Source: Alphaproteobacteria bacterium
Lineage (GTDB): Bacteria; Pseudomonadota; Alphaproteobacteria; RF32; CAG-239
Assembly (NCBI GenBank): GCA_015062235.1
Contig: SUUZ01000003.1
Span: forward strand, 94,736-158,735
Direction of reading: 5' to 3'
DNA: 64,000 nt
Position 1 is the first letter of the stretch, and the number at the start of each line of letters is the position of its first letter. The position numbers and the translations under genes are program-made. Under the pieces are notes generated by a model. The model did not search any database. It was not told where the DNA came from and saw nothing but the letters and a program-made list of their open reading frames with translations. Below, one piece after another: positions 3,860 through 54,784 of this stretch.

Positions 3860-4276
3860 ATGACTTGGTTTCTATTTGCTTTAGGAGCTGCATTATTTGC
3901 AGCACTTACTTCAATTTTAGCCAAAATAGGTTTAGAAGGAATTAGTTCAAATGTCGCTACAGCAATTCGCACAATTGTTATATTAGCCATGTCTTGGGGT
4001 ATTGTTTTCTTTACAGGATCTCACAATCAATTAAGCTCAATATCTAGCAAAAACTGGTGGTTTTTAATAGCTTCTGGCATTGCAACAGGAGCATCATGGC
4101 TCTGCTATTTCAAAGCATTGCAAATAGGTGATGTTTCAAAAGTTGTTGCAATTGATAAATTTAGTTTAGTGCTAACTATCATATTATCTGCAATAATCTT
4201 AAGCGAAGTAATGACATTAAAAGTAATAGTTGGATGTCTATTAATCACAGCTGGTACTCTTTTAATGATTTTATAA
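3860..4276 (+). CDS. EamA-like small membrane transporter (4-TM, DMT superfamily)
   Basis: 138 aa, four hydrophobic helices, EamA-type glycine/alanine-rich TM segments. Confidence 0.5.
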   Translation: MTWFLFALGAALFAALTSILAKIGLEGISSNVATAIRTIVILAMSWGIVFFTGSHNQLSSISSKNWWFLIASGIATGASWLCYFKALQIGDVSKVVAIDKFSLVLTIILSAIILSEVMTLKVIVGCLLITAGTLLMIL

Positions 4277-4316
4277 AAATAAAACAACCTTTATCTTAAA
4301 TAGGCTAATTATCATC

Positions 4317-4997
4317 ATGGATATATATCAAGATATACGACAAGTTTTAATTGATAACGCTGAAACTTGTTATAAAAATTTTCTAATAAAACTTATTCCT
4401 AATTGTTCCAATATTCTAGGAGTTAGAATACCTTTTTTAAGAAAAATAGCCAAACAAATATGTTCAAATAATTGGCAATCATATATATATCATAATCCTA
4501 TTTTTTTAGAAGAAACTTTATTGCAAGCTATAATCATCGGTAAAAAATCTCAAACCATTAGTGATTTCAACAATATTAAAAACTTTATTCCCAAAATAAC
4601 CAACTGGGCAATTTGTGATACTTTTTGCTCAAGCTTAAAATTTATAAAAAACAATAAAGATTATTGCTTAATATTTTTAAAACCTTACCTATCTTCCTCA
4701 AAAGAATTTGAATTACGCTTTGGCTTAGTGATACTACTAAACTATTTTATAGAAGAAAAATATCTACCACTAATTTTCAAAACACTCGATAGTTTCAAAA
4801 ATAATCAATACTATGCTCAAATGGCTGCAGCTTGGCTTCTTTCTTCTTGCTTTATAAAATTTCCCAATCGAACCTTAATTTACCTAAAAAAATCTCAACT
4901 TGATAAAACAACTTACAATAAATCTATTCAAAAAATTATTGAATCTCAACAAGTAGACAGGTCATTTCATCCCTTACTGAAAAGTATGAAACAATAA
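4317..4997 (+). CDS. DNA alkylation repair protein (AlkD/AlkC-like HEAT-repeat glycosylase family)
   Basis: 'NILGVRIPFLRKIAK' and the helical-repeat composition are typical of PF08713. Very AT-rich. Confidence 0.5.
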   Translation: MDIYQDIRQVLIDNAETCYKNFLIKLIPNCSNILGVRIPFLRKIAKQICSNNWQSYIYHNPIFLEETLLQAIIIGKKSQTISDFNNIKNFIPKITNWAICDTFCSSLKFIKNNKDYCLIFLKPYLSSSKEFELRFGLVILLNYFIEEKYLPLIFKTLDSFKNNQYYAQMAAAWLLSSCFIKFPNRTLIYLKKSQLDKTTYNKSIQKIIESQQVDRSFHPLLKSMKQ

Positions 4998-5058: not shown

Positions 5059-7022
<1,964 letters not shown>

Positions 7023-7143
7023 TTTTAGTACTCCATTGTATATTATAACTAAACCTTTAGTTAGTTATCAAAAACGTCTTTGTCAAGAGAACCAATAAAA
7101 AAAGTTGCCCTTTATAAAGGGCAACCATAAAAAAGTAAATGTA

Positions 7144-7887
7144 TCAAACACTTTTCTTTATTGTTGCAACAATTTGAACCACCGCTGAAACAACAAAACT
7201 TACAATCAATAAAAATGAGAACAACATCACACTTACAAAGTATACCCAAGCTTCAGGATATACCAACATAACAGGACGAGCAATAGTCGAAGCCCATCCG
7301 TCTAAAGTAAATACTTGAAGCAAAGTAAATATAGCTGCTCCTAAATTACCAAATATCGAAAAAGTTTCACCATAAAGACTAACTGCAATTATCCCAAAGA
7401 CATAAAAAGATACAATAAATATAACCAAAAAAGAAATAAAAGCTGGTAACAACTCAATAAATACTTGTACTAAGTTATTCATTTTGGAAAAACGATTTAC
7501 ATATTTAAACAACCTAAACAGACGAAATGTTCTCAATACAATAAATGCACTCATAACAGGCAGTGATGAAACAACAACTATAACCAGATCAAAAACATTC
7601 CATCCTGATTTAAAAAATTTTCCTTTTAAGGCAAAAATTTTCAAAAACATTTCCGCCATAAAAATTCCCATAAAAACCCTATCTAACAAAAACAACCCAT
7701 TATCAAAATAAAATTCCATTGTTGGCGAAGTCATCAAACCTAAAATAACAGCATTAGCCAAAATAACTGCCATTATGAACATATCAAAACTAAAACCTGT
7801 TACTAATTTCGCCAACCTGCGTTGATCATCGTTATAATATAGCGATGATATAATTTTCTTTGATGATGACTTATTTTTTTCAACCAT
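7144..7887 (-). CDS. Single-domain voltage-gated cation channel (NaChBac/BacNav family)
   Basis: Six TM segments. The S4 voltage sensor 'LRTFRLFRLFKYVNRF' has R/K at every third position. The pore region 'FTLLQVFTLDGWASTIARPVM' aligns with NaChBac 'TLESWAS'. The start ATG at 7887 follows a GAGGAG ribosome-binding site. Confidence 0.75.
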   Translation of the reverse strand: MVEKNKSSSKKIISSLYYNDDQRRLAKLVTGFSFDMFIMAVILANAVILGLMTSPTMEFYFDNGLFLLDRVFMGIFMAEMFLKIFALKGKFFKSGWNVFDLVIVVVSSLPVMSAFIVLRTFRLFRLFKYVNRFSKMNNLVQVFIELLPAFISFLVIFIVSFYVFGIIAVSLYGETFSIFGNLGAAIFTLLQVFTLDGWASTIARPVMLVYPEAWVYFVSVMLFSFLLIVSFVVSAVVQIVATIKKSV

Positions 7888-7928
7888 ATTATCTCTCCTC
7901 AAGTTTCAAACATCCACATCATTCTAAA

Positions 7929-8594
7929 CTAAAACAACCAGAATGCAACAACAATTCCTGACAAAGCTATCATAGGACCAAATGCTAACACAGATTTCTT
8001 TCTAATCAAACTATACACAATTCCTAAAACAGATGCCAAAACAATCACATAAAGAAGCCCTTCAACTCCCAACCAAGCTCCAAGAGCTGACAACAGCTTA
8101 ATATCTCCACCTCCAAAAGCATCTTTATTACGCCAAACAATCAAAAGACTAACTAACACAGGTAAAAAATAACCAATAAACGCTCCTATCGCACTTTCAT
8201 TAAAAGCAACAAATCCCATATTTAAACTTGAGGCCAAAAAACCCAATAAAAGCAATGGAACAGTCAGTATATCTGGTAATAAAAATATTCTAAAATCAAT
8301 TTCTGCCATAAGTAACAAAAGCCATATATACATAGCTATAAATCCAAAACCATGTACCCCAAAATGTATATACGCTAAATAAGTAATTATAGCAAAAGCA
8401 AAAGCTTCAACTATTGAGCGCCAAACAAGCTTTTTATACAATTTATTACGTCTGTATAAACTAACTTTTTTAGTTGGACGAAAAATCTCAAACAATGCAC
8501 CTGCAAAAGTTGCAGGCATAAATTTAGCAAATCTTCTTGCAGTATAAGGAGTAAACAAACCAAAAATAAGAGCCAGTAAAATATAAAACACCAT
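7929..8594 (-). CDS. Prepilin peptidase (A24 family, PilD/CpaA-like)
   Basis: Polytopic membrane protein with a 'GGGDIKLL' motif. ATG at 8594 follows a GGAGAG ribosome-binding site. Confidence 0.6.
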   Translation of the reverse strand: MVFYILLALIFGLFTPYTARRFAKFMPATFAGALFEIFRPTKKVSLYRRNKLYKKLVWRSIVEAFAFAIITYLAYIHFGVHGFGFIAMYIWLLLLMAEIDFRIFLLPDILTVPLLLLGFLASSLNMGFVAFNESAIGAFIGYFLPVLVSLLIVWRNKDAFGGGDIKLLSALGAWLGVEGLLYVIVLASVLGIVYSLIRKKSVLAFGPMIALSGIVVAFWLF

Positions 8595-8681: not shown

Positions 8682-10196
8682 TTATTTATGAACATTTTTA
8701 CCATAAAGCATCCAGTCATATATTTTTGATTTTTTCCTAACGCTAATATCCATATCTTCAACAGTCATCTTACCTTCTGTCAAAGTAGGAATATCTGAAA
8801 ATAATGATGTTCCCAACCCCAACCTATGACCATCAATCTTTGCTCCTAAACTCTCTATTATAGTGGGATAAATATCAAAAGGCGTAAAAATACGATTCTT
8901 TTCATTAATTGCAGCGACAGGGGAATTCATAAAAATATTTATAGGTTTTCTATCCATTTCTTTTGTAAATCTTTGGTTCATTGTTAAATGGTCTCCCAAC
9001 ACCACAACAACACTATCTTTATAAAAATCTTGTTCTTTCAACCATTCAATAAAATTTGCAATCTGTTTATCCGAACACGACACTACATTTTCTATATTAT
9101 TATGCATCCCAAATCTACGCTCACACACATCATCTGCAAAACGATACGTTCCATAATGTGTATCAAGTGTCATCATTGTAAAAACGAATGGTTTTTTTTG
9201 AGAGCTTAAAAATTTTAATTCCTCTTTAGCATAATCAAAAACCTGTCTATCTGGAAATTTAGTGGTCTTCTCAAAAGACAGCTCTATTCCATCTCTTTCC
9301 GCATAAAAATTTGTATCAAGCAATTTTTGTTGCCCATGTGTTTCAACAAATTTATCCATTGCAGCAAATTCACCATTAGAACCAATCAAAGATGTTAGAT
9401 TATATCCTTGCTCTTTCAAAATATCGTACAAACACCACGCCTTAGGGAAAAAGCCCTCTTTGGGATGAAACCAATTAGGATCATTTATTGGTAATTGTAT
9501 CGGTGCACCACACGTTTGAGCAAATAATCCTGCCTGTGTCCACTGTGTACCATCAATTTGATAAGAACCTCCAATATATTCATTATCACTAAATGAAATA
9601 TTTTCTTTTGCTAATTTATGTAACTCCTCTATCAAATCAGCTCCAAAATAATTATGTTTAGGAGTTACGGCATAGGTTGCTTCCATGGATTCTGCAAAAA
9701 TTAATATCAAATTTCTTTTTTGAATAGGAAATGTTATTTTTGCATCCTGTGGTATAATATAATTTTCTTCATAAAAATTAGATGTTTCGCTCTTATATTT
9801 ATGAAAGGTAATCATATTCCACACATTCATCTTAAAGAAGACAAAAACAATACAAAAAATAAACCACCCCAAACTTATTAAACATCTGTGCTTATAAACC
9901 CAAGCTCTAAAAACATCTATAATTTTGATATGAATCCGATATTTACAACAAAAAAACAATGCCAGCAACAAGGTAATAATAAGTCCCGTCATTACTGTAT
10001 TTTTCAAATAACTCATCACTATACGTATTTCTGAAGAAAATGGCATATTCAGATGAAACATAATTTGTTCATATGTTACTTCCCCAAATTTTCTCACAAT
10101 CCAATTTGCTGACGAAAACAGCATATAACCAATAAAAAATACCAATAATGCTACCATCAACATTCTCCATATCACTCTAAAATTAGTTGTAGCCAT
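8682..10196 (-). CDS. Sulfatase-family membrane protein (LTA-synthase/phosphoglycerol- or phosphoethanolamine-transferase-like)
   Basis: N-terminal TM helices are followed by a sulfatase-like domain ('LILIFAESMEATY', 'VVVLGDH'). The start is uncertain: ATG at 10196 or TTG at 10223. Confidence 0.55.
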   Translation of the reverse strand: MATTNFRVIWRMLMVALLVFFIGYMLFSSANWIVRKFGEVTYEQIMFHLNMPFSSEIRIVMSYLKNTVMTGLIITLLLALFFCCKYRIHIKIIDVFRAWVYKHRCLISLGWFIFCIVFVFFKMNVWNMITFHKYKSETSNFYEENYIIPQDAKITFPIQKRNLILIFAESMEATYAVTPKHNYFGADLIEELHKLAKENISFSDNEYIGGSYQIDGTQWTQAGLFAQTCGAPIQLPINDPNWFHPKEGFFPKAWCLYDILKEQGYNLTSLIGSNGEFAAMDKFVETHGQQKLLDTNFYAERDGIELSFEKTTKFPDRQVFDYAKEELKFLSSQKKPFVFTMMTLDTHYGTYRFADDVCERRFGMHNNIENVVSCSDKQIANFIEWLKEQDFYKDSVVVVLGDHLTMNQRFTKEMDRKPINIFMNSPVAAINEKNRIFTPFDIYPTIIESLGAKIDGHRLGLGTSLFSDIPTLTEGKMTVEDMDISVRKKSKIYDWMLYGKNVHK

Positions 10197-10318
10197 ACCA
10201 CAATAAAGACCATAACGCAACAATTTTCAAAAAAATAGTGTACAAAAATTTTATATGTTGCTTTAACAATTTATAATGATATATTCGCAACATTATTTAA
10301 ATAGTATAGGAGTAAAAG

Positions 10319-16469: not shown

Positions 16470-18311
16470 CTAATCAAGACTCTTAAGAATATACCCACTT
16501 ATCCTCTCTGAATAAAAAGATGGATCAGAAATTGGTTCTCCCTCAGCAACCTTAGCTTGATCCAATAAAATACGAGAAATCTCTTTTACCTTCTCAGCAT
16601 TAGTATCAACCATTACCATATCCGCAAGCCTAATAATTAATGGATGATAAGGATTTAATTCTAATATTCTGGTAGATGCAAAAGCTGTCTGTTGTTGGTG
16701 GTTTCTCATTAACCTTTCAAGATGCAAACTCATTTGTCCATTTTCCACCGTGATACTCACCGGAGATGCTGTCAATTTTTCAGTTGTTACAACCTTTGCA
16801 ACATCTTCTTTTAAAAACTCAGCCATAAATTCTGTTAGCTGTTTTAGACTACCATCATCAGCCTTTTTTTCATCCCTTTTCCAAGTCATATCAATATCTG
16901 CTTGTGAAATATGTTTTATTGCAAAATTCTTATAACTAGGCAAAACTTGTGGCCAAAACTCATCAATAGGCTCATTCATTAATAAAACCTCAATTCCTTT
17001 TTGCTTAAATGCTTCTAGTTGAGGACTATTTCGCAAAATATTTATATCATCACCTGTAATATAATAAATGGCTTTTTGCTCCTTATTACAGCGACCTATA
17101 TATTCATCTAAATTAGTCAATTTTTCCATATCTGCTGTCGAATAAAAATATGAAATTGCAGCTATCTCTTCACGATTCTTGAAATCTTCATAAATGCCTT
17201 CTTTTAAAACAATCCCAAAACTCTTCCAAAACTCCATATAATCATCATAATTTTTACTACGTTTTTTTAGCTCTTTTAAAATCCTATTAACAGTACCCGC
17301 CTTAATTTTTTCCATAAGCGGAGAATTTTGCAACATTTCCCTTGATATATTTAATGGTAAATCTGCACTATCAATAACACCTTTAACAAAACGCAAATAA
17401 TTAGGCATTAATTGTTCTATTTTATCAGAAATAAATACCTTATTAATATAAAGCTTAATTGAATTCTTTTTATCTGGTTGAAATAAATCATATGGAGCTT
17501 TACCTGGGATAAATAACAAACCACTATACTCTATATTTCCTTCTGCCTTAAAATGAAGTGTCATCCACGGATCATCAAAATTATGCGAAATATGCTGATA
17601 AAAATCCTTATATTGATCCGTTGTTATTTCTGCTTTATTTTTCATCCACAATGCAGAACCTTTATTTATAGTTTCTTCTCCTGCTTCCCCTAAATCAAGT
17701 ACTATTGGATAATCTATATGATCTGAATATGTCCGTATAATCTGTCGTAAATAAATAGTATCAACATAATTTTCTTCACCTTTTTTCAAAAACAACTTAA
17801 TTTCCGTACCATTTGATTGTTTTTCTGCTTCACTTATTTCAAAACCATCGATTCCATTAGATACCCATTTCCACGCCTTACTTTCGTCAGCCCTTTTTGT
17901 CAGAATTTCAACTCTTTCAGCAACCATAAAAGCAGAATAAAAACCAACTCCAAACTGACCAATAAGTTCACAAACAGAACCATTATCTGACGCATTTTTA
18001 ACAAAATCAGCTGTACCAGATTTAGCTATTGTACCAAGATGAGTTATCAAATCATCTTTGCTCATCCCGATTCCATTATCTGCTATTATTAAAGTTTTTT
18101 CTTTAGCACTAGGCGTAATTACTATTTTAAAAGCTCCTGATTTTTTAGCTATATCAGGATTTGTTAGAGCCAAATATTTTAATTTATCACAAGCATCTGA
18201 TGCATTTGAAATTAATTCACGTAAAAAAATTTGTTTTTCTGAATAAAGTGAATTAATAACAATATCCAACATTTTGCTAACATCTGCTTGAAAAGCAATT
18301 TTATCAGCCAT
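16470..18311 (-). CDS. htpG: Chaperone HtpG (Hsp90)
   Basis: 'LRELISNASDACDKLKY' GHKL ATPase N-terminus; 613 aa. Confidence 0.95.
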   Translation of the reverse strand: MADKIAFQADVSKMLDIVINSLYSEKQIFLRELISNASDACDKLKYLALTNPDIAKKSGAFKIVITPSAKEKTLIIADNGIGMSKDDLITHLGTIAKSGTADFVKNASDNGSVCELIGQFGVGFYSAFMVAERVEILTKRADESKAWKWVSNGIDGFEISEAEKQSNGTEIKLFLKKGEENYVDTIYLRQIIRTYSDHIDYPIVLDLGEAGEETINKGSALWMKNKAEITTDQYKDFYQHISHNFDDPWMTLHFKAEGNIEYSGLLFIPGKAPYDLFQPDKKNSIKLYINKVFISDKIEQLMPNYLRFVKGVIDSADLPLNISREMLQNSPLMEKIKAGTVNRILKELKKRSKNYDDYMEFWKSFGIVLKEGIYEDFKNREEIAAISYFYSTADMEKLTNLDEYIGRCNKEQKAIYYITGDDINILRNSPQLEAFKQKGIEVLLMNEPIDEFWPQVLPSYKNFAIKHISQADIDMTWKRDEKKADDGSLKQLTEFMAEFLKEDVAKVVTTEKLTASPVSITVENGQMSLHLERLMRNHQQQTAFASTRILELNPYHPLIIRLADMVMVDTNAEKVKEISRILLDQAKVAEGEPISDPSFYSERISGYILKSLD

Positions 18312-50870: not shown

Positions 50871-52634
50871 TCATTTATAAAGATTTCTTTGACGATATTT
50901 AGTATGCAACAACTCATGAGACTTACCCTCCCCTGGTTGCCCCAAAAATTCCGTATAAACTTGCTTAACCTCTTCATTATGATGAGATAAACGATTCTTC
51001 GCTTTTTCATCTTCACAATTTAACCCCAAGGAACGTTTTTTACGAATTTCATCAGTAATACCCCACGGTTTTGGTAAATTGTGCATCATAACTTTAGGCT
51101 GCCCACCTCCAGCAATGCACCCTCCAGGACAAGCCATAACTTCTATAAAATGATAAGGTAAATCTTCACCAGCATCATGGGCAGTTTTAATTTCAGCCAT
51201 AATATCCTCTACGTTACCAACACCATTAACAACAGCTATACGGATTTTAGTACCATTAATATCTACTTCAGCAACTTTAACACCTTCAAGCCCTTCAATA
51301 GCCTCAAAATTCAAATTTCCTAGCTCTTCTCCTGTGATATAAAAATATGCAGTACGTAAAGCCGCCGTCATCACACCGCCAGTAACACCAAAGATGGTAG
51401 CTGCACCAGAATATTCTCCCAACGGGCTGTCAGCAGGTTCTTCCTTCAATGACTTAAAGTTAATACCTGCTTGGCGAATCATTTTAGCTAACTCACGAGT
51501 AGTCAAAACAACATCAACATCTTGATATCCTGATGATGACATAGATTCATGACGTCTCACTTCCCATTTTTTAGCTGTACAAGGCATAATCGATACAACC
51601 TTAATCTTTGATGCATCCACACCAATTTTTTGAGCATAATATGTTTTTGCCAAAGCACCAACCATCTGGTGAGGAGATTTACAAGATGACAAGTTCGACA
51701 AATTTTCTGGATAGTATTTTTCAATATAATCTACCCATGCTGGACAACAAGATGTGAACATTGGCAAATTATCATTAGCTGTAAAGCGTTTTACAAATTC
51801 ACTTGCTTCTTCAATAATTGTCAAATCAGCACCAAAATTTGTATCAAACACCTTGTTAAAACCAAGACGTCTCAAAGCGGCATAGATTTTTTCGGTCAAG
51901 TTTGCACCAAAATCATAACCAAATTCTTCACCCAAAGCCACTCTAACTGCTGGAGCAATTTGTACAACTGTAATTGTTTCTTTATCCTTTATCATATCCC
52001 ACACTTTTTGTGTTTCATCATATTCTACAATTGCTCCTGTAGGACAATGAGCAGCACATTGTCCACACTTAATACAAGGGGTATCTGCTAACTTTGCATC
52101 ATTTGCCCCTGTTATTTTTGTTGCAAGTCCTCTATTAAGATAACTCAGAGCCCAAACATTTTGAATATTCTGACAAATATCTACACAACGTCCACAAACG
52201 ATACACTTAGCAGGATCAAGAACAACCGCCTGAGTTGAAACATCAAGCTCCTCTTCATCAACTATTTTTTCAATTTCATCCCTATCAATTCCTATTTGCA
52301 TAGCCATATCTTGCAGCTCACATTGTCCATTTCTAGCACATTGTAAACAATGATTTGGATGATTACTTAAAATAAGCTCTAAAACCGTTTTTCTTGTTTC
52401 ACGCAACTCTACATCATTGGTAATAACTTCCATACCCTCACTAACAGGAGTACAACAAGAACGCATAATTCTTCCACCAACTTTAACTATACACATTCCA
52501 CATCCTGCAGACGGATCAACATCTGGATGTTTACATAAAGTAGGTATATCTACATTAGCACTACGAGCAGCATCCAAAATACTAGTACCTGCTTCAACTT
52601 CAACTTCTACATCATCTATTTTAAGCTTCACCAT
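50871..52634 (-). CDS. hydA: [FeFe]-hydrogenase catalytic subunit (HydA/HndD-type, M3 architecture)
   Basis: All three H-cluster motifs are present: L1 'FTSCCPAWV', L2 'MPCTAKKWE', L3 'EVMACPGGCIAGGGQP'. The N-terminus has a [2Fe-2S] ferredoxin-like domain, a His-ligated 'HPNHCLQCARNGQC' cluster and two 4Fe-4S motifs (CIVCGRCVDIC, CIKCGQCAAHCP). There is a C-terminal small-subunit-like extension. The start (MVKLK) follows a GAGGAG ribosome-binding site. Confidence 0.9.
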   Translation of the reverse strand: MVKLKIDDVEVEVEAGTSILDAARSANVDIPTLCKHPDVDPSAGCGMCIVKVGGRIMRSCCTPVSEGMEVITNDVELRETRKTVLELILSNHPNHCLQCARNGQCELQDMAMQIGIDRDEIEKIVDEEELDVSTQAVVLDPAKCIVCGRCVDICQNIQNVWALSYLNRGLATKITGANDAKLADTPCIKCGQCAAHCPTGAIVEYDETQKVWDMIKDKETITVVQIAPAVRVALGEEFGYDFGANLTEKIYAALRRLGFNKVFDTNFGADLTIIEEASEFVKRFTANDNLPMFTSCCPAWVDYIEKYYPENLSNLSSCKSPHQMVGALAKTYYAQKIGVDASKIKVVSIMPCTAKKWEVRRHESMSSSGYQDVDVVLTTRELAKMIRQAGINFKSLKEEPADSPLGEYSGAATIFGVTGGVMTAALRTAYFYITGEELGNLNFEAIEGLEGVKVAEVDINGTKIRIAVVNGVGNVEDIMAEIKTAHDAGEDLPYHFIEVMACPGGCIAGGGQPKVMMHNLPKPWGITDEIRKKRSLGLNCEDEKAKNRLSHHNEEVKQVYTEFLGQPGEGKSHELLHTKYRQRNLYK

Positions 52635-52635
52635 A

Positions 52636-54309
52636 CTATTTCTCCTCTGCATCAACTAATTTATCTAAATACTCATTCTCATAGAAATTCAAAGTAGACA
52701 ATACTGGATTAGGAGCAGTCTGCCCAAGTCCGCAAAGCGACGCTTTTTTCATAGCCGAAGCAATTCTCTTCAGTTGTTCCAAATCAGCTTTTGTACCCTT
52801 ACCTTTATTAATCTTATCTAACAAATTGAGCATTTGTTTTCCGCCGATTCTACAAGGAGAACATTTACCACAAGATTCATCAACAGTAAAATCTAAATAG
52901 AACTTGGCTAAAGATACCATATCAGATGAATCATCAATAACTATCATACCGCCAGATCCCATAATTGAGCCAACTTTTTTTAGTTCTTCATAACATACTG
53001 GCATATCCATATAATCTTTAGGAATAACTCCTCCTGATGGTCCTCCTGTTTGCACAGCTTTTAATTTTTTACCATTAGAAACACCACCACCGATTTCATT
53101 AACGATTTCGTTAATTGTAGTACCCATCGGAACCTCAATCAAACCGGAGTGTTCAACCTGACCGGTCAAAGCAAAAACTTTGGTACCTTTAGATGTTTCT
53201 GTACCGAAAGATGCAAACCAATCAGCACCTTTAAGCAAAATTTTTGACACATTTGCCAAAGTTTCAACATTGTTAACACAAGAGGGCTTATCCCACAAAC
53301 CTTTGTTTGTCGGATAAGGAGGTCTTGGTCTCGGAGTACCTCTGGCGCCTTCAATTGAGTGAATCAAAGCAGTTTCTTCACCGCAAACAAACGCACCGGC
53401 ACCAAGTCTGATATCAATATTAAAGCAGAAATCCGTTCCCATAATATTGTTACCGAGTAAGCGATTCTTTTTACAAGCTTTAATAGCTTTTTCCAATCTT
53501 TCGACAGCCAAAGGATATTCGGCACGAACATAGAACCATCCTTCTGTTGCTCCGATTGCATAAGCAGCAATCATCATACCTTCAATAACGGCGTGCGGAT
53601 CGCCTTCCAAGATTGAACGATCCATATAAGCACCGGGATCACCTTCGTCGCCGTTACAAATTATGAATTTTTCATCCACTGTTGGAACTTTAGCTGCCAA
53701 CTCCCATTTCATACCAGTAGAAAAACCACCACCGCCACGACCTCGCAAGCCTGACTTTTTAATTTCATCAACAACTTCGGCTGGCGTCATATTTTTCAAA
53801 GCTTTTTCCAAAGCTAAATAACCACCTCGAGCCATATATTCCTGAATATCTTCTGGATCCATATGTCCAGCATTTTTTAATACAACTTTCTCTTGCTTAG
53901 TAAAAAATGGCAAATCTAAAGACAAAACATATTTTTTAAGCTCTTCAGGAACACCATTAACTCCTTTAGTATTCAGTGCTGGCTCAACATATTTTTCCAT
54001 TATATCTTTAACAGCTTTTAAATCTAAACGCTTAAATAAAACATCTTTTTTACCTTTAATTTCTACTCTAATCAATGGTCCTTGAGCACAAAGCCCCATA
54101 CAGCCTGTAGCAACAACTCTGACTTTATCTTCAATCTGTTTTTCCACAATAAAGTTTTTTATCAAATCTAAAATGTCATCGCTACCTGAAGACTTACATC
54201 CTGTAGAATGGCAACAATATATACTACATTCAAATCTTTCTATTTCAGCCAGTTTATTTTTTGCCTGTTCATGAATATCAAATCTTTTATCTAAATCCAT
54301 ATCGACCAT
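52636..54309 (-). CDS. hydB: NuoF-like NAD(P)H-binding flavoprotein subunit of the hydrogenase (HydB/HndC-like)
   Basis: N-terminal thioredoxin-like [2Fe-2S] domain (CCHSTGC…C…C). Core carries 'SGLRGRGGGGFSTGMKWE', 'FICNGDEGDPGAYMDRSILEGDPH' (FMN/NADH sites) and 'ESCGKCSPCRIGG' (4Fe-4S). GAGGAG ribosome-binding site before ATG at 54309. Confidence 0.88.
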   Translation of the reverse strand: MVDMDLDKRFDIHEQAKNKLAEIERFECSIYCCHSTGCKSSGSDDILDLIKNFIVEKQIEDKVRVVATGCMGLCAQGPLIRVEIKGKKDVLFKRLDLKAVKDIMEKYVEPALNTKGVNGVPEELKKYVLSLDLPFFTKQEKVVLKNAGHMDPEDIQEYMARGGYLALEKALKNMTPAEVVDEIKKSGLRGRGGGGFSTGMKWELAAKVPTVDEKFIICNGDEGDPGAYMDRSILEGDPHAVIEGMMIAAYAIGATEGWFYVRAEYPLAVERLEKAIKACKKNRLLGNNIMGTDFCFNIDIRLGAGAFVCGEETALIHSIEGARGTPRPRPPYPTNKGLWDKPSCVNNVETLANVSKILLKGADWFASFGTETSKGTKVFALTGQVEHSGLIEVPMGTTINEIVNEIGGGVSNGKKLKAVQTGGPSGGVIPKDYMDMPVCYEELKKVGSIMGSGGMIVIDDSSDMVSLAKFYLDFTVDESCGKCSPCRIGGKQMLNLLDKINKGKGTKADLEQLKRIASAMKKASLCGLGQTAPNPVLSTLNFYENEYLDKLVDAEEK

Positions 54310-54310
54310 A

Positions 54311-54784
54311 TTAGTTCTCCTCAAAAGCTTTACGCCATTCATTCAAAATAACAGGAACATCATCTGGTGTAACACGTCCATATGTTTTACCATTTACTAC
54401 ACACACTGGAGCCAAACCACAACAACCAACACAACGAACACTCTGTAAATGAAACATTTTATCAGCAGTGCTTTCCCCTTCATTAACACCTAATTCTTCT
54501 TTAAATTTTTCCAAAACTTTATCATTACCTTTAAGATAGCAAGCAGTACCTGTACAAACAGAAATAACTGCTTTACCAGGAGCTTCTAATTTGAAAAAAT
54601 TGTAAAAAGTCAAAACCTCATAGATTCTAGCCAGAGGTATTCCCATACCTTGAGCCACATCAACAGCATCTTGCCAATCAATATATCCCTTAACCCCTTG
54701 AATTTCATGCAAAGCCATAATCAAAGAACCACGTTTTTTACGCCATTTATTAGCAACTTGCGTGGCCTGAGAAACATCAACCAT
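54311..54784 (-). CDS. hydC: NuoE-like [2Fe-2S] thioredoxin-fold subunit of the hydrogenase (HydC/HndA-like)
   Basis: 'VCTGTACYLKG…CVGCCGLAPV' four-Cys NuoE/24-kDa motif. The stop abuts the hydB start. Confidence 0.85.
   Translation of the reverse strand: MVDVSQATQVANKWRKKRGSLIMALHEIQGVKGYIDWQDAVDVAQGMGIPLARIYEVLTFYNFFKLEAPGKAVISVCTGTACYLKGNDKVLEKFKEELGVNEGESTADKMFHLQSVRCVGCCGLAPVCVVNGKTYGRVTPDDVPVILNEWRKAFEEN

Follow-up and report, generated by a model that had tools for sequence, protein, structure and literature searches.

A voltage-gated BacNav-family channel with an Asp-Gly selectivity filter and no C-terminal tail in a gut lineage of Alphaproteobacteria

The 64,000-nucleotide stretch of an Alphaproteobacteria bacterium contig considered here (SUUZ01000003.1; the whole stretch is hereafter called the window) carries a minus-strand gene whose 247-residue product is a genuine member of the BacNav family, a voltage-gated cation channel with a single domain of six helices. 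The explanation that best covers the observations as a whole, to which we assign a probability of about 0.6, is a homotetrameric, depolarisation-activated cation channel of the NavAb/NavMs-type branch of this family that is weakly selective and lacks the cytoplasmic tail. It represents not a new kind of system but a new natural variant, marked by an Asp-Gly selectivity filter, the absence of the C-terminal domain, a Ser in place of the S6 Asn and a constant neighbouring gene of the A24 peptidase family. BacNav channels serve as structural models for eukaryotic voltage-gated sodium (Nav) and calcium (Cav) channels.

The channel, its voltage sensor and its missing tail

The channel protein matches the Pfam Ion_trans profile (E = 1.7e-32) over profile positions 3–238 of 241. 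In an HMMER search its best solved relative was NavMs (E = 1.3e-43, residues 23–244), and NavAb was matched with an E-value of 1e-37; overall identity to the two is about 34–37%. The strongest sequence matches outside the BacNav family were to domain II of T-type Cav channels (6kzp, E = 4e-41). Homologues in a large protein database number 806 at E < 1e-10, and the Ion_trans and NavMs matches, these homologues and the substitution ratios given below place the signal well past chance. The Pfam and NavMs matches uphold the preliminary description of the open reading frame, made from the sequence alone, as a BacNav-type voltage-gated channel. An NCBIfam scan of the channel and of the neighbouring A24 peptidase returned no matching model. 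The gene starts with the ATG at 7887 and stops with the TGA at 7144–7146; this ATG was favoured over a TTG at 7902 because the Shine-Dalgarno sequence GAGGAGA sits at 7894–7900.

AlphaFold2 (AF2) modeling, carried out on the monomer only with an alignment of 41 relatives, gave a mean predicted local distance difference test score (pLDDT) of 76.5, with values of about 90 in the pore and 65–80 in the voltage sensor. The model contains the complete S1–S6 topology expected of such a channel: helices S0 (residues 8–30), S1 (32–53), S2 (62–87), S3 (95–108) and S4 (116–130) are followed by the S4–S5 linker with S5 (134–172), the pore helices P1 (182–190) and P2 (198–209) with the filter between them, and S6 (213–246). 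A Foldseek comparison with the PDB agrees with this topology, the top matches being NavAb, CavAb and NavMs with a probability of 1.0 and a TM-score of about 0.7.

The S4 sequence reads L118-R119-TF-R122-LF-R125-LF-K128-YVN-R132, exactly the R-x-x-R-x-x-R-x-x-K-x-x-x-R pattern that had first drawn attention to the frame. The channel was aligned with MAFFT to NavAb, NavMs, NavSp, NaChBac, NsvBa, CavMr and NavPp, using the sequences in the source data of the CavMr paper. In this alignment R119, R122, R125 and K128 fall on the NavAb gating charges R1–R4 (R99–R108), with Arg at R1–R3 and Lys at R4, and N45, D69, F76, E79, K83 and D100 correspond to NavAb N25, N49, F56, E59, R63 and D80. E79 and D100 thereby match the two countercharges of NavAb, Glu59 and Asp80, and Phe76 in S2 matches NavAb Phe56, known for BacNavs as the hydrophobic constriction site. 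In the clade of close relatives none of R119, R122 and R125 varies and at least 90% of sequences retain K128, while F76, E79 and D100 of the S2/S3 charge-transfer centre are, like the S4 charges, invariant or at least 90% conserved. As read from the alignment, the voltage-sensing machinery is complete.

The channel resembles NavMs of Magnetococcus marinus and NavAb of Aliarcobacter butzleri in its six-transmembrane architecture with S0, P1 and P2, in the positions of gating charges and countercharges, in its short P2–S6 loop and in its phylogenetic branch. Besides the filter and the tail, it departs from NavAb as follows: Lys replaces Arg at R4, Met52 stands at the position of E32 (where NavMs has Leu), and Ser230 replaces the conserved S6 asparagine (NavAb Asn211).

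To describe the distribution of the gene, one genome per GTDB species was scanned, which yielded 150 loci; the species counts given throughout refer to the best 80 of these. All 80 are uncultured Alphaproteobacteria or proteobacteria without further classification, and those with a readable sample source come from gut or faeces (human, ruminant, rabbit and chicken; for example Candidatus Scatocola). Among the best 120 of the 806 database homologues, lengths range from 225 to 257 residues and 97 carry TLDGW. Forty-one alignment columns are invariant among 41 relatives with 60–81% identity, and the ratio of nonsynonymous to synonymous substitution rates (dN/dS) is 0.14 against the nearest orthologue and at most 0.07 against more distant ones for which dS could be estimated. 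The channel gene is under strong purifying selection. Since the D-G-W core of the filter is kept in 78 of the 80 species, the reading frame is intact in all of them and dN/dS is low, this is a conserved, functional gene of the lineage and not an oddity of a single genome. A voltage-gated channel had been thought unusual for such a genome, a view that gives way to its conservation across this gut lineage, in which at least 80 species have it. The N-terminal motif LYY(N/D)DDQRRL was considered as a feature of the clade and dropped, being retained in the closer relatives only.

Exhaustive searching of 1.84 billion cluster representatives with HMMER returned few close ones, and beyond these, single-domain channels with 33–45% identity were mixed with four-domain eukaryotic channels. 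Neighbour joining with 200 bootstraps recovered the gut clade as monophyletic (0.945), grouped it with the representatives P0121, P0124 and P0136 (0.90) and, one step further out, joined P0123, P0131 and P0135 to these (0.91), all of them inside the NavAb-like group. The Bacillus group with NaChBac and NsvBa is separate (bootstrap 1.0), and the AnclNav group with CavMr and NavPp also stands apart. NavRh was not among the best 60 matches when the PDB was searched with P0136. Because the channel lies outside the Bacillus group, the original label 'NaChBac-like' is apt in pointing to a voltage-gated BacNav but loose as to kinship, and NavMs/NavAb-like is more accurate.

The protein ends three to four residues past S6, at about NavMs residue 229, and the neck and coiled coil carried by NavMs and NavAb are entirely absent. 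The distance from the filter Thr to the C-terminus is 54 residues in the channel and 49–60 in 73 of the 80 species, compared with 80–125 in 20 reference BacNavs and 77–157 in most of the 57 single-domain representatives with a locatable filter; P0208, P0198 and L158 are rare short-tailed exceptions outside the clade. The C-terminal neck and coiled-coil tail of BacNavs has been described as strongly conserved (PMC3791462), and according to the literature every prokaryotic Nav that had been described by 2013 had a linker and coiled coil. Going by the predicted proteins, a large natural tail-less clade is a real departure from known BacNavs.

The six deepest-branching species of the clade have a Lys/Pro-rich tail of 25–40 residues without obvious heptads. 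This basic tail, noted at the deep loci L067–L072 and L075 with the filters TLDGWAE or TLDGWAS, looks like an intermediate in tail loss. In the nearest outgroups the protein mostly finishes with a short helical segment of heptad-like pattern, and taken together these two features point to a stepwise loss of the coiled coil. In the absence of a cytoplasmic neck or coiled coil, the tetramer would assemble through its membrane domains alone. Truncation of BacNavs just after S6 (NavMs delta223; NaChBac 239-delta and 233-delta) is reported to reduce expression and current and to slow inactivation and recovery, and the inactivation and recovery kinetics of the present channel probably differ from those of tailed BacNavs. 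Function without the tail is assumed from the conservation of the gene. On that assumption the clade would show that the coiled-coil tail is dispensable, although engineered truncations suggest its importance for expression, and the tail-less channel becomes a candidate minimal construct for structural work.

Selectivity filter and ion selectivity

The segment FTLDGWAS (residues 193–200) aligns column for column, in both HMMER and MAFFT, with TLESWSM of NavMs and NavAb and TLESWAS of NaChBac, and it is flanked by P1 and P2 in the AF2 model, which confirms its earlier assignment as the pore loop. Thr and Trp of the TLESW consensus are retained, whereas Asp196 and Gly197 (positions 3 and 4 of the filter) replace Glu and Ser; compared with NavMs and NavAb, Ser also replaces the Met at position 7 (NavAb Met181). 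Positions 6 and 7 are Ala-Ser, as in the Na+-selective NaChBac, and position 8 is Thr. TLDGW is a variant inside the known range of the family, in which NsvBa has TLDSW and CavMr has TLEGW. The double combination of Asp and Gly has not been reported before, and a full-text literature search for 'TLDGW' retrieved only an unrelated paper on a nematode G-protein-coupled receptor. The clade thus offers a natural, evolutionarily stable filter joining two substitutions that have so far been studied singly, and could help to probe what determines the preference among Na+, Li+ and Ca2+ in a NavAb-type scaffold.

Asp at position 3 occurs naturally in NsvBa of Bacillus alcalophilus (TLDSWGS), a non-selective channel in which D186E by itself restores Na+ selectivity. 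NsvBa differs from the present channel in its placement in the Bacillus clade, in Ser4, in a GxG at positions 6 and 8 and in its full coiled-coil tail. In NaChBac the mutation E192D leads to the loss of Na+ selectivity. In NavMs, E178D gives relative permeabilities PK/PNa of 0.4 and PCa/PNa of 0.5 with conductance halved, and a single site, the outer Na+ site, is gone from the crystal structure of this mutant. These precedents suggest that Asp3 loosens the selectivity for Na+ and lets K+ and Ca2+ through. The earlier proposal that substitutions of this type move the filter from Na+ towards Ca2+ is plausible but too specific; the published Glu-to-Asp exchanges in NsvBa, NaChBac and NavMs bear out a reduced selectivity but not a Ca2+-selective channel arising from it.

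The effect of Gly4, to judge from published channels, varies with the channel background, so that the expectation that replacing Ser with Gly matters holds in some of them and less in others. Gly4 is essential for Ca2+ selectivity in CavMr of Meiothermus ruber (AnclNav group; TLEGWVD), where Val6 is also needed, and D4G shifts NavPp towards Ca2+. In NavAb, S178G ('LivAb') only increases the selectivity for Li+ (PLi/PNa 2.18), with PCa/PNa and PK/PNa below 0.05. CavMr shares Gly4 with the present channel and is distinguished from it by Glu3, Val6, Asp7, a long P2–S6 insert, a coiled-coil tail and its clade; as regards AnclNav features, the channel has Gly4 but lacks the insert, has Ala and not Val at position 6 and is placed outside the group in the tree. 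At position 7, where the channel has Ser, the NavAb mutant M181A is non-selective with an approximately tenfold Ca2+ preference. The CatSper3 and CatSper4 filters (TVDGWTD and TQDGWVD) have the same T-x-D-G-W core and differ at positions 6 and 7; CatSper itself is eukaryotic, a heterotetramer accompanied by numerous auxiliary subunits, and the likeness noted here is one of the filter core. NavAb S178G and NavMs E178D each carry one of the two natural substitutions within the same NavAb-like branch, and unlike the channel they are single substitutions in tailed proteins with Met at position 7.

By analogy with these channels, the most probable phenotype would be that of a voltage-gated cation channel with weak selectivity and some permeability to Ca2+; strict selectivity for either Na+ or Ca2+ seems less likely. 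On depolarisation S4 would move outward and the S6 bundle would open. Four Asp196 residues would form the high-field-strength ring where Glu is usual, Gly197 would come next at the position of Ser, and the shorter Asp and the absent Ser hydroxyl would widen the outer filter, such that Na+ and Li+ as well as appreciable K+ and Ca2+ could pass.

Several points weigh against this model. NavAb S178G stayed Ca2+-impermeable and Li+-preferring, and the channel sits in the NavAb-like branch. The literature search turned up no electrophysiology for any TLDGW channel. The confidence of the AF2 model in the voltage sensor is only moderate (pLDDT 65–80) and the model is that of a monomer, and Ser230, in place of the S6 Asn211, may affect gating. 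Engineered tail-less BacNavs (NavMs delta223 and delta239; NaChBac 239-delta and 233-delta) express poorly or give little current. Finally, the promoter and terminator calls at the locus, described below, are consensus matches only.

A possible though clearly less probable account is that of an ordinary Na+-selective BacNav in which Asp and Gly are tolerated and which admits Na+ as NaChBac and NavBP do. It would fit the position of the channel in the NavAb-like branch, in which S178G left PCa/PNa and PK/PNa below 0.05, and the Ala-Ser at positions 6–7, identical to those of NaChBac. However, in each of the three channels in which it has been tested (NsvBa, NaChBac and NavMs), Asp instead of Glu at position 3 went with reduced Na+ selectivity, and the reverse exchange D186E was alone sufficient to restore this selectivity in NsvBa.

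Conversely, the channel could be natively and highly Ca2+-selective, which would add to CavMr another kind of bacterial Cav, one whose T-x-D-G-W filter resembles that of CatSper. We regard this as unlikely: CavMr requires Val6 where the channel has Ala6, position 7 bears no acidic residue, the channel lies outside the AnclNav clade and is devoid of the long P2–S6 insert, NavAb S178G is not Ca2+-permeable, and NavMs E178D reaches a PCa/PNa of 0.5 only. In favour of this reading are the role of Gly4 as the key Ca2+ determinant in CavMr and NavPp, the filter core shared with CatSper3 and CatSper4, and the fact that the top matches outside the BacNavs are T-type Cav domains.

Further filter variants were observed among the relatives. 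An orthologous subclade (P0054, P0065, P0066, P0077, P0083, P0094 and others, including four of the loci L001–L080) lacks the filter Thr1, which is otherwise near-universal among BacNav filters; its filters read VVEGW, LVDGW, VMDGW or LVEGW, position 6 being Met or Thr and position 7 mostly Gly. On three independent contigs (L152, positions 3968..4684; L154; L156) the filter is shortened to AFSPDSG without the Trp in an otherwise intact orthologue; the source of L152, with a GC content of 0.52, is a human gut metagenome. In P0121 the filter is TLGGW, so that position 3 is not acidic. Pores with AFSPDSG or TLGGW may be degenerate or quite different in kind. An unrelated single-domain channel of 282 residues from the representative search (P0211) has the filter TFDGWVD, in which the CatSper-like D-G-W core is joined to the Val6-Asp7 of CavMr, and P0211 is thus a candidate for a native Ca2+ channel in another part of the family.

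The paired A24 peptidase gene

Directly upstream of the channel lies a gene for a protein of the Peptidase_A24 (prepilin-peptidase) family (Table 1). Its stop codon is separated from the channel ATG by 41 nt, no terminator-like site was found between the two genes, and they are most likely co-transcribed. The A24 gene occupies this position in all 80 species, with a gap of 17–48 nt in 77 of them, and its catalytic motifs LPD and GGGD are invariant across species. The pairing extends over channel identities down to 48% and locus GC contents of 0.30–0.52. It is also found beside the subfamily members L081, L083–85, L118, L152 and L156, where L081 has the filter TLDGWAS together with a tail, and L118 has TLSDWLE and a coiled-coil-like tail and is followed by groESL. 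Eighty diverse BacNav loci were sampled from metagenomes, and no A24 gene occurred within 4 kb of the approximately 70 canonical (mostly TLESWSM) channels among them. Among the matches listed in a homologue search with the A24 protein, only proteins of the same lineage appeared (51–100% identity). The A24–channel pairing is old and specific to this channel subfamily.

The association raises the question of a functional link, and we consider it doubtful that the channel is the substrate or obligate partner of the peptidase, either through N-terminal cleavage near G31/F32 or with the peptidase acting as an assembly factor that replaces the coiled coil. The idea draws on the unbroken pairing across such divergence in identity and GC content, its persistence in the tailed, outgroup-like L081 and L118 against none of about 70 canonical loci, the invariant catalytic motifs and the lack of pilus genes, both beside the A24 gene in 10 sampled loci and throughout the window. 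The N-terminus of the channel, a basic leader facing inward, then a Gly and a hydrophobic helix, also resembles a class III signal peptide. Yet all linked loci come from one lineage that shares a groESL and often an htpG neighbourhood, for which inherited gene order is a possible explanation. Moreover, Gly31 is absent in about 8 of 81 channels that are still paired with the peptidase, a Glu at +5 is absent and a Lys or Arg at −2 usually so, and, the check for pilus genes having covered the 10 sampled loci and the window, ordinary pilin substrates may be encoded elsewhere in these genomes. An extended and similarly speculative version sees the pair as a two-component unit in which the protease processes or chaperones the channel, perhaps in place of the coiled coil, and the channel is a minimal, CatSper-like, Ca2+-permeable pore with a ring of four Asp residues. 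Should the strict pairing prove functional, it would represent a new kind of channel accessory.

Two more specific proposals were set aside. Prepilin-type cleavage at G31/F32 is unlikely as stated, given the orthologues without Gly31 and the missing +5 Glu and −2 Lys/Arg. Membership of the A24 gene in a pilus locus was rejected, as no pilus or secretion genes adjoin it upstream in the 10 sampled loci or occur in the 64-kb window.

That the channel might be a decaying or non-conducting relic, as the lost tail, the Ser in place of the conserved S6 Asn and the aberrant filters of some relatives (TLGGW in P0121; FSPDSG without Trp in L152 and L156) could be taken to imply, is very improbable in view of dN/dS values of at most 0.14, an intact frame in 80 species and gating charges, F76/E79/D100 and D-G-W that are invariant or nearly so.

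Genomic neighbourhood

Table 1. Features of the channel locus, with positions counted from the first letter of the window
Feature	Position	Strand	Basis or remark
Channel coding sequence, 247 aa, BacNav family (Ion_trans)	7144..7887	minus	Open reading frame, Pfam, PDB-sequence match, alignment, AF2, Foldseek
Shine-Dalgarno sequence GAGGAGA	7894..7900	minus	6 nt before ATG 7887
S4 voltage sensor, residues 116–132	7492..7542	minus	Charges R119, R122, R125, K128, R132
Selectivity filter T194-L-D196-G197-W198-A-S200	7288..7308	minus	On NavAb T175-L-E177-S178-W179-S-M181
Peptidase_A24 (prepilin-peptidase family) coding sequence, 221 aa from ATG 8594	7929..8594	minus	Pfam; no methyltransferase domain
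Intrinsic-terminator-like hairpin GGTTGCCCTTTATAAAGGGCAACT then TTTTTTATTG (T-run)	7103..7126	minus	18 nt past channel stop
Promoter-like TTGATA-18-TATAAT before groES	7042..7071	minus	11/12 matches; consensus match only
groES	6732..7022	minus	Downstream neighbour of channel
groEL	5059..6705	minus	Downstream of groES

The order of transcription is channel (7887 to 7144), groES (7022 to 6732) and groEL (6705 to 5059). In the preliminary description the channel directly followed groESL, with a strand in common; the shared strand is correct, but the channel lies upstream. The terminator-like hairpin and the promoter-like element between them suggest that groESL is a transcription unit apart from the channel, whose transcript would end before it. 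The groES–groEL pair usually follows the channel in relatives, and 0.7–2.3 kb are inserted in more distant species. A functional link between the channel and groESL was rejected on account of these insertions and of the two intervening signals.

An inverted repeat ACTAA-N8-TTAGT (7042..7075, minus strand) abuts the promoter-like −10 element upstream of groES; the repeat does not appear to match the CIRCE consensus. In 6 of the 10 sampled loci (L004, L012, L015, L037, L050 and L062) htpG, encoding Hsp90, precedes the A24 gene, and many relatives show the order htpG, A24, channel, groES, groEL, in which heat-shock chaperone genes flank the pair on both sides. The window has htpG at 16470..18311 (minus strand), about 8 kb from the pair, the interval being occupied by genes for a sulfatase-like protein, MarC, RadC, map, SfsA, TspO and alaS. 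The first of these (8682..10223, minus strand), upstream of the A24 gene, encodes a 513-residue membrane-anchored protein of the sulfatase family that resembles the lipoteichoic acid synthase or phosphoethanolamine transferase type. It was not found at that position in related loci and has probably been inserted locally, separating htpG from the pair.

The window, with a GC content of 0.337, also encodes housekeeping functions, lipopolysaccharide transport and an FeFe-hydrogenase. The hydrogenase region (50871..54342, minus strand) comprises the large subunit and a NuoF-like flavoprotein subunit, similar to an electron-bifurcating hydrogenase, and its predicted products indicate an anaerobic fermentative lifestyle. 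The gene content of the window fits an anaerobic Gram-negative gut bacterium, and the clade provides a handle on the roles of voltage-gated channels in anaerobic gut bacteria.

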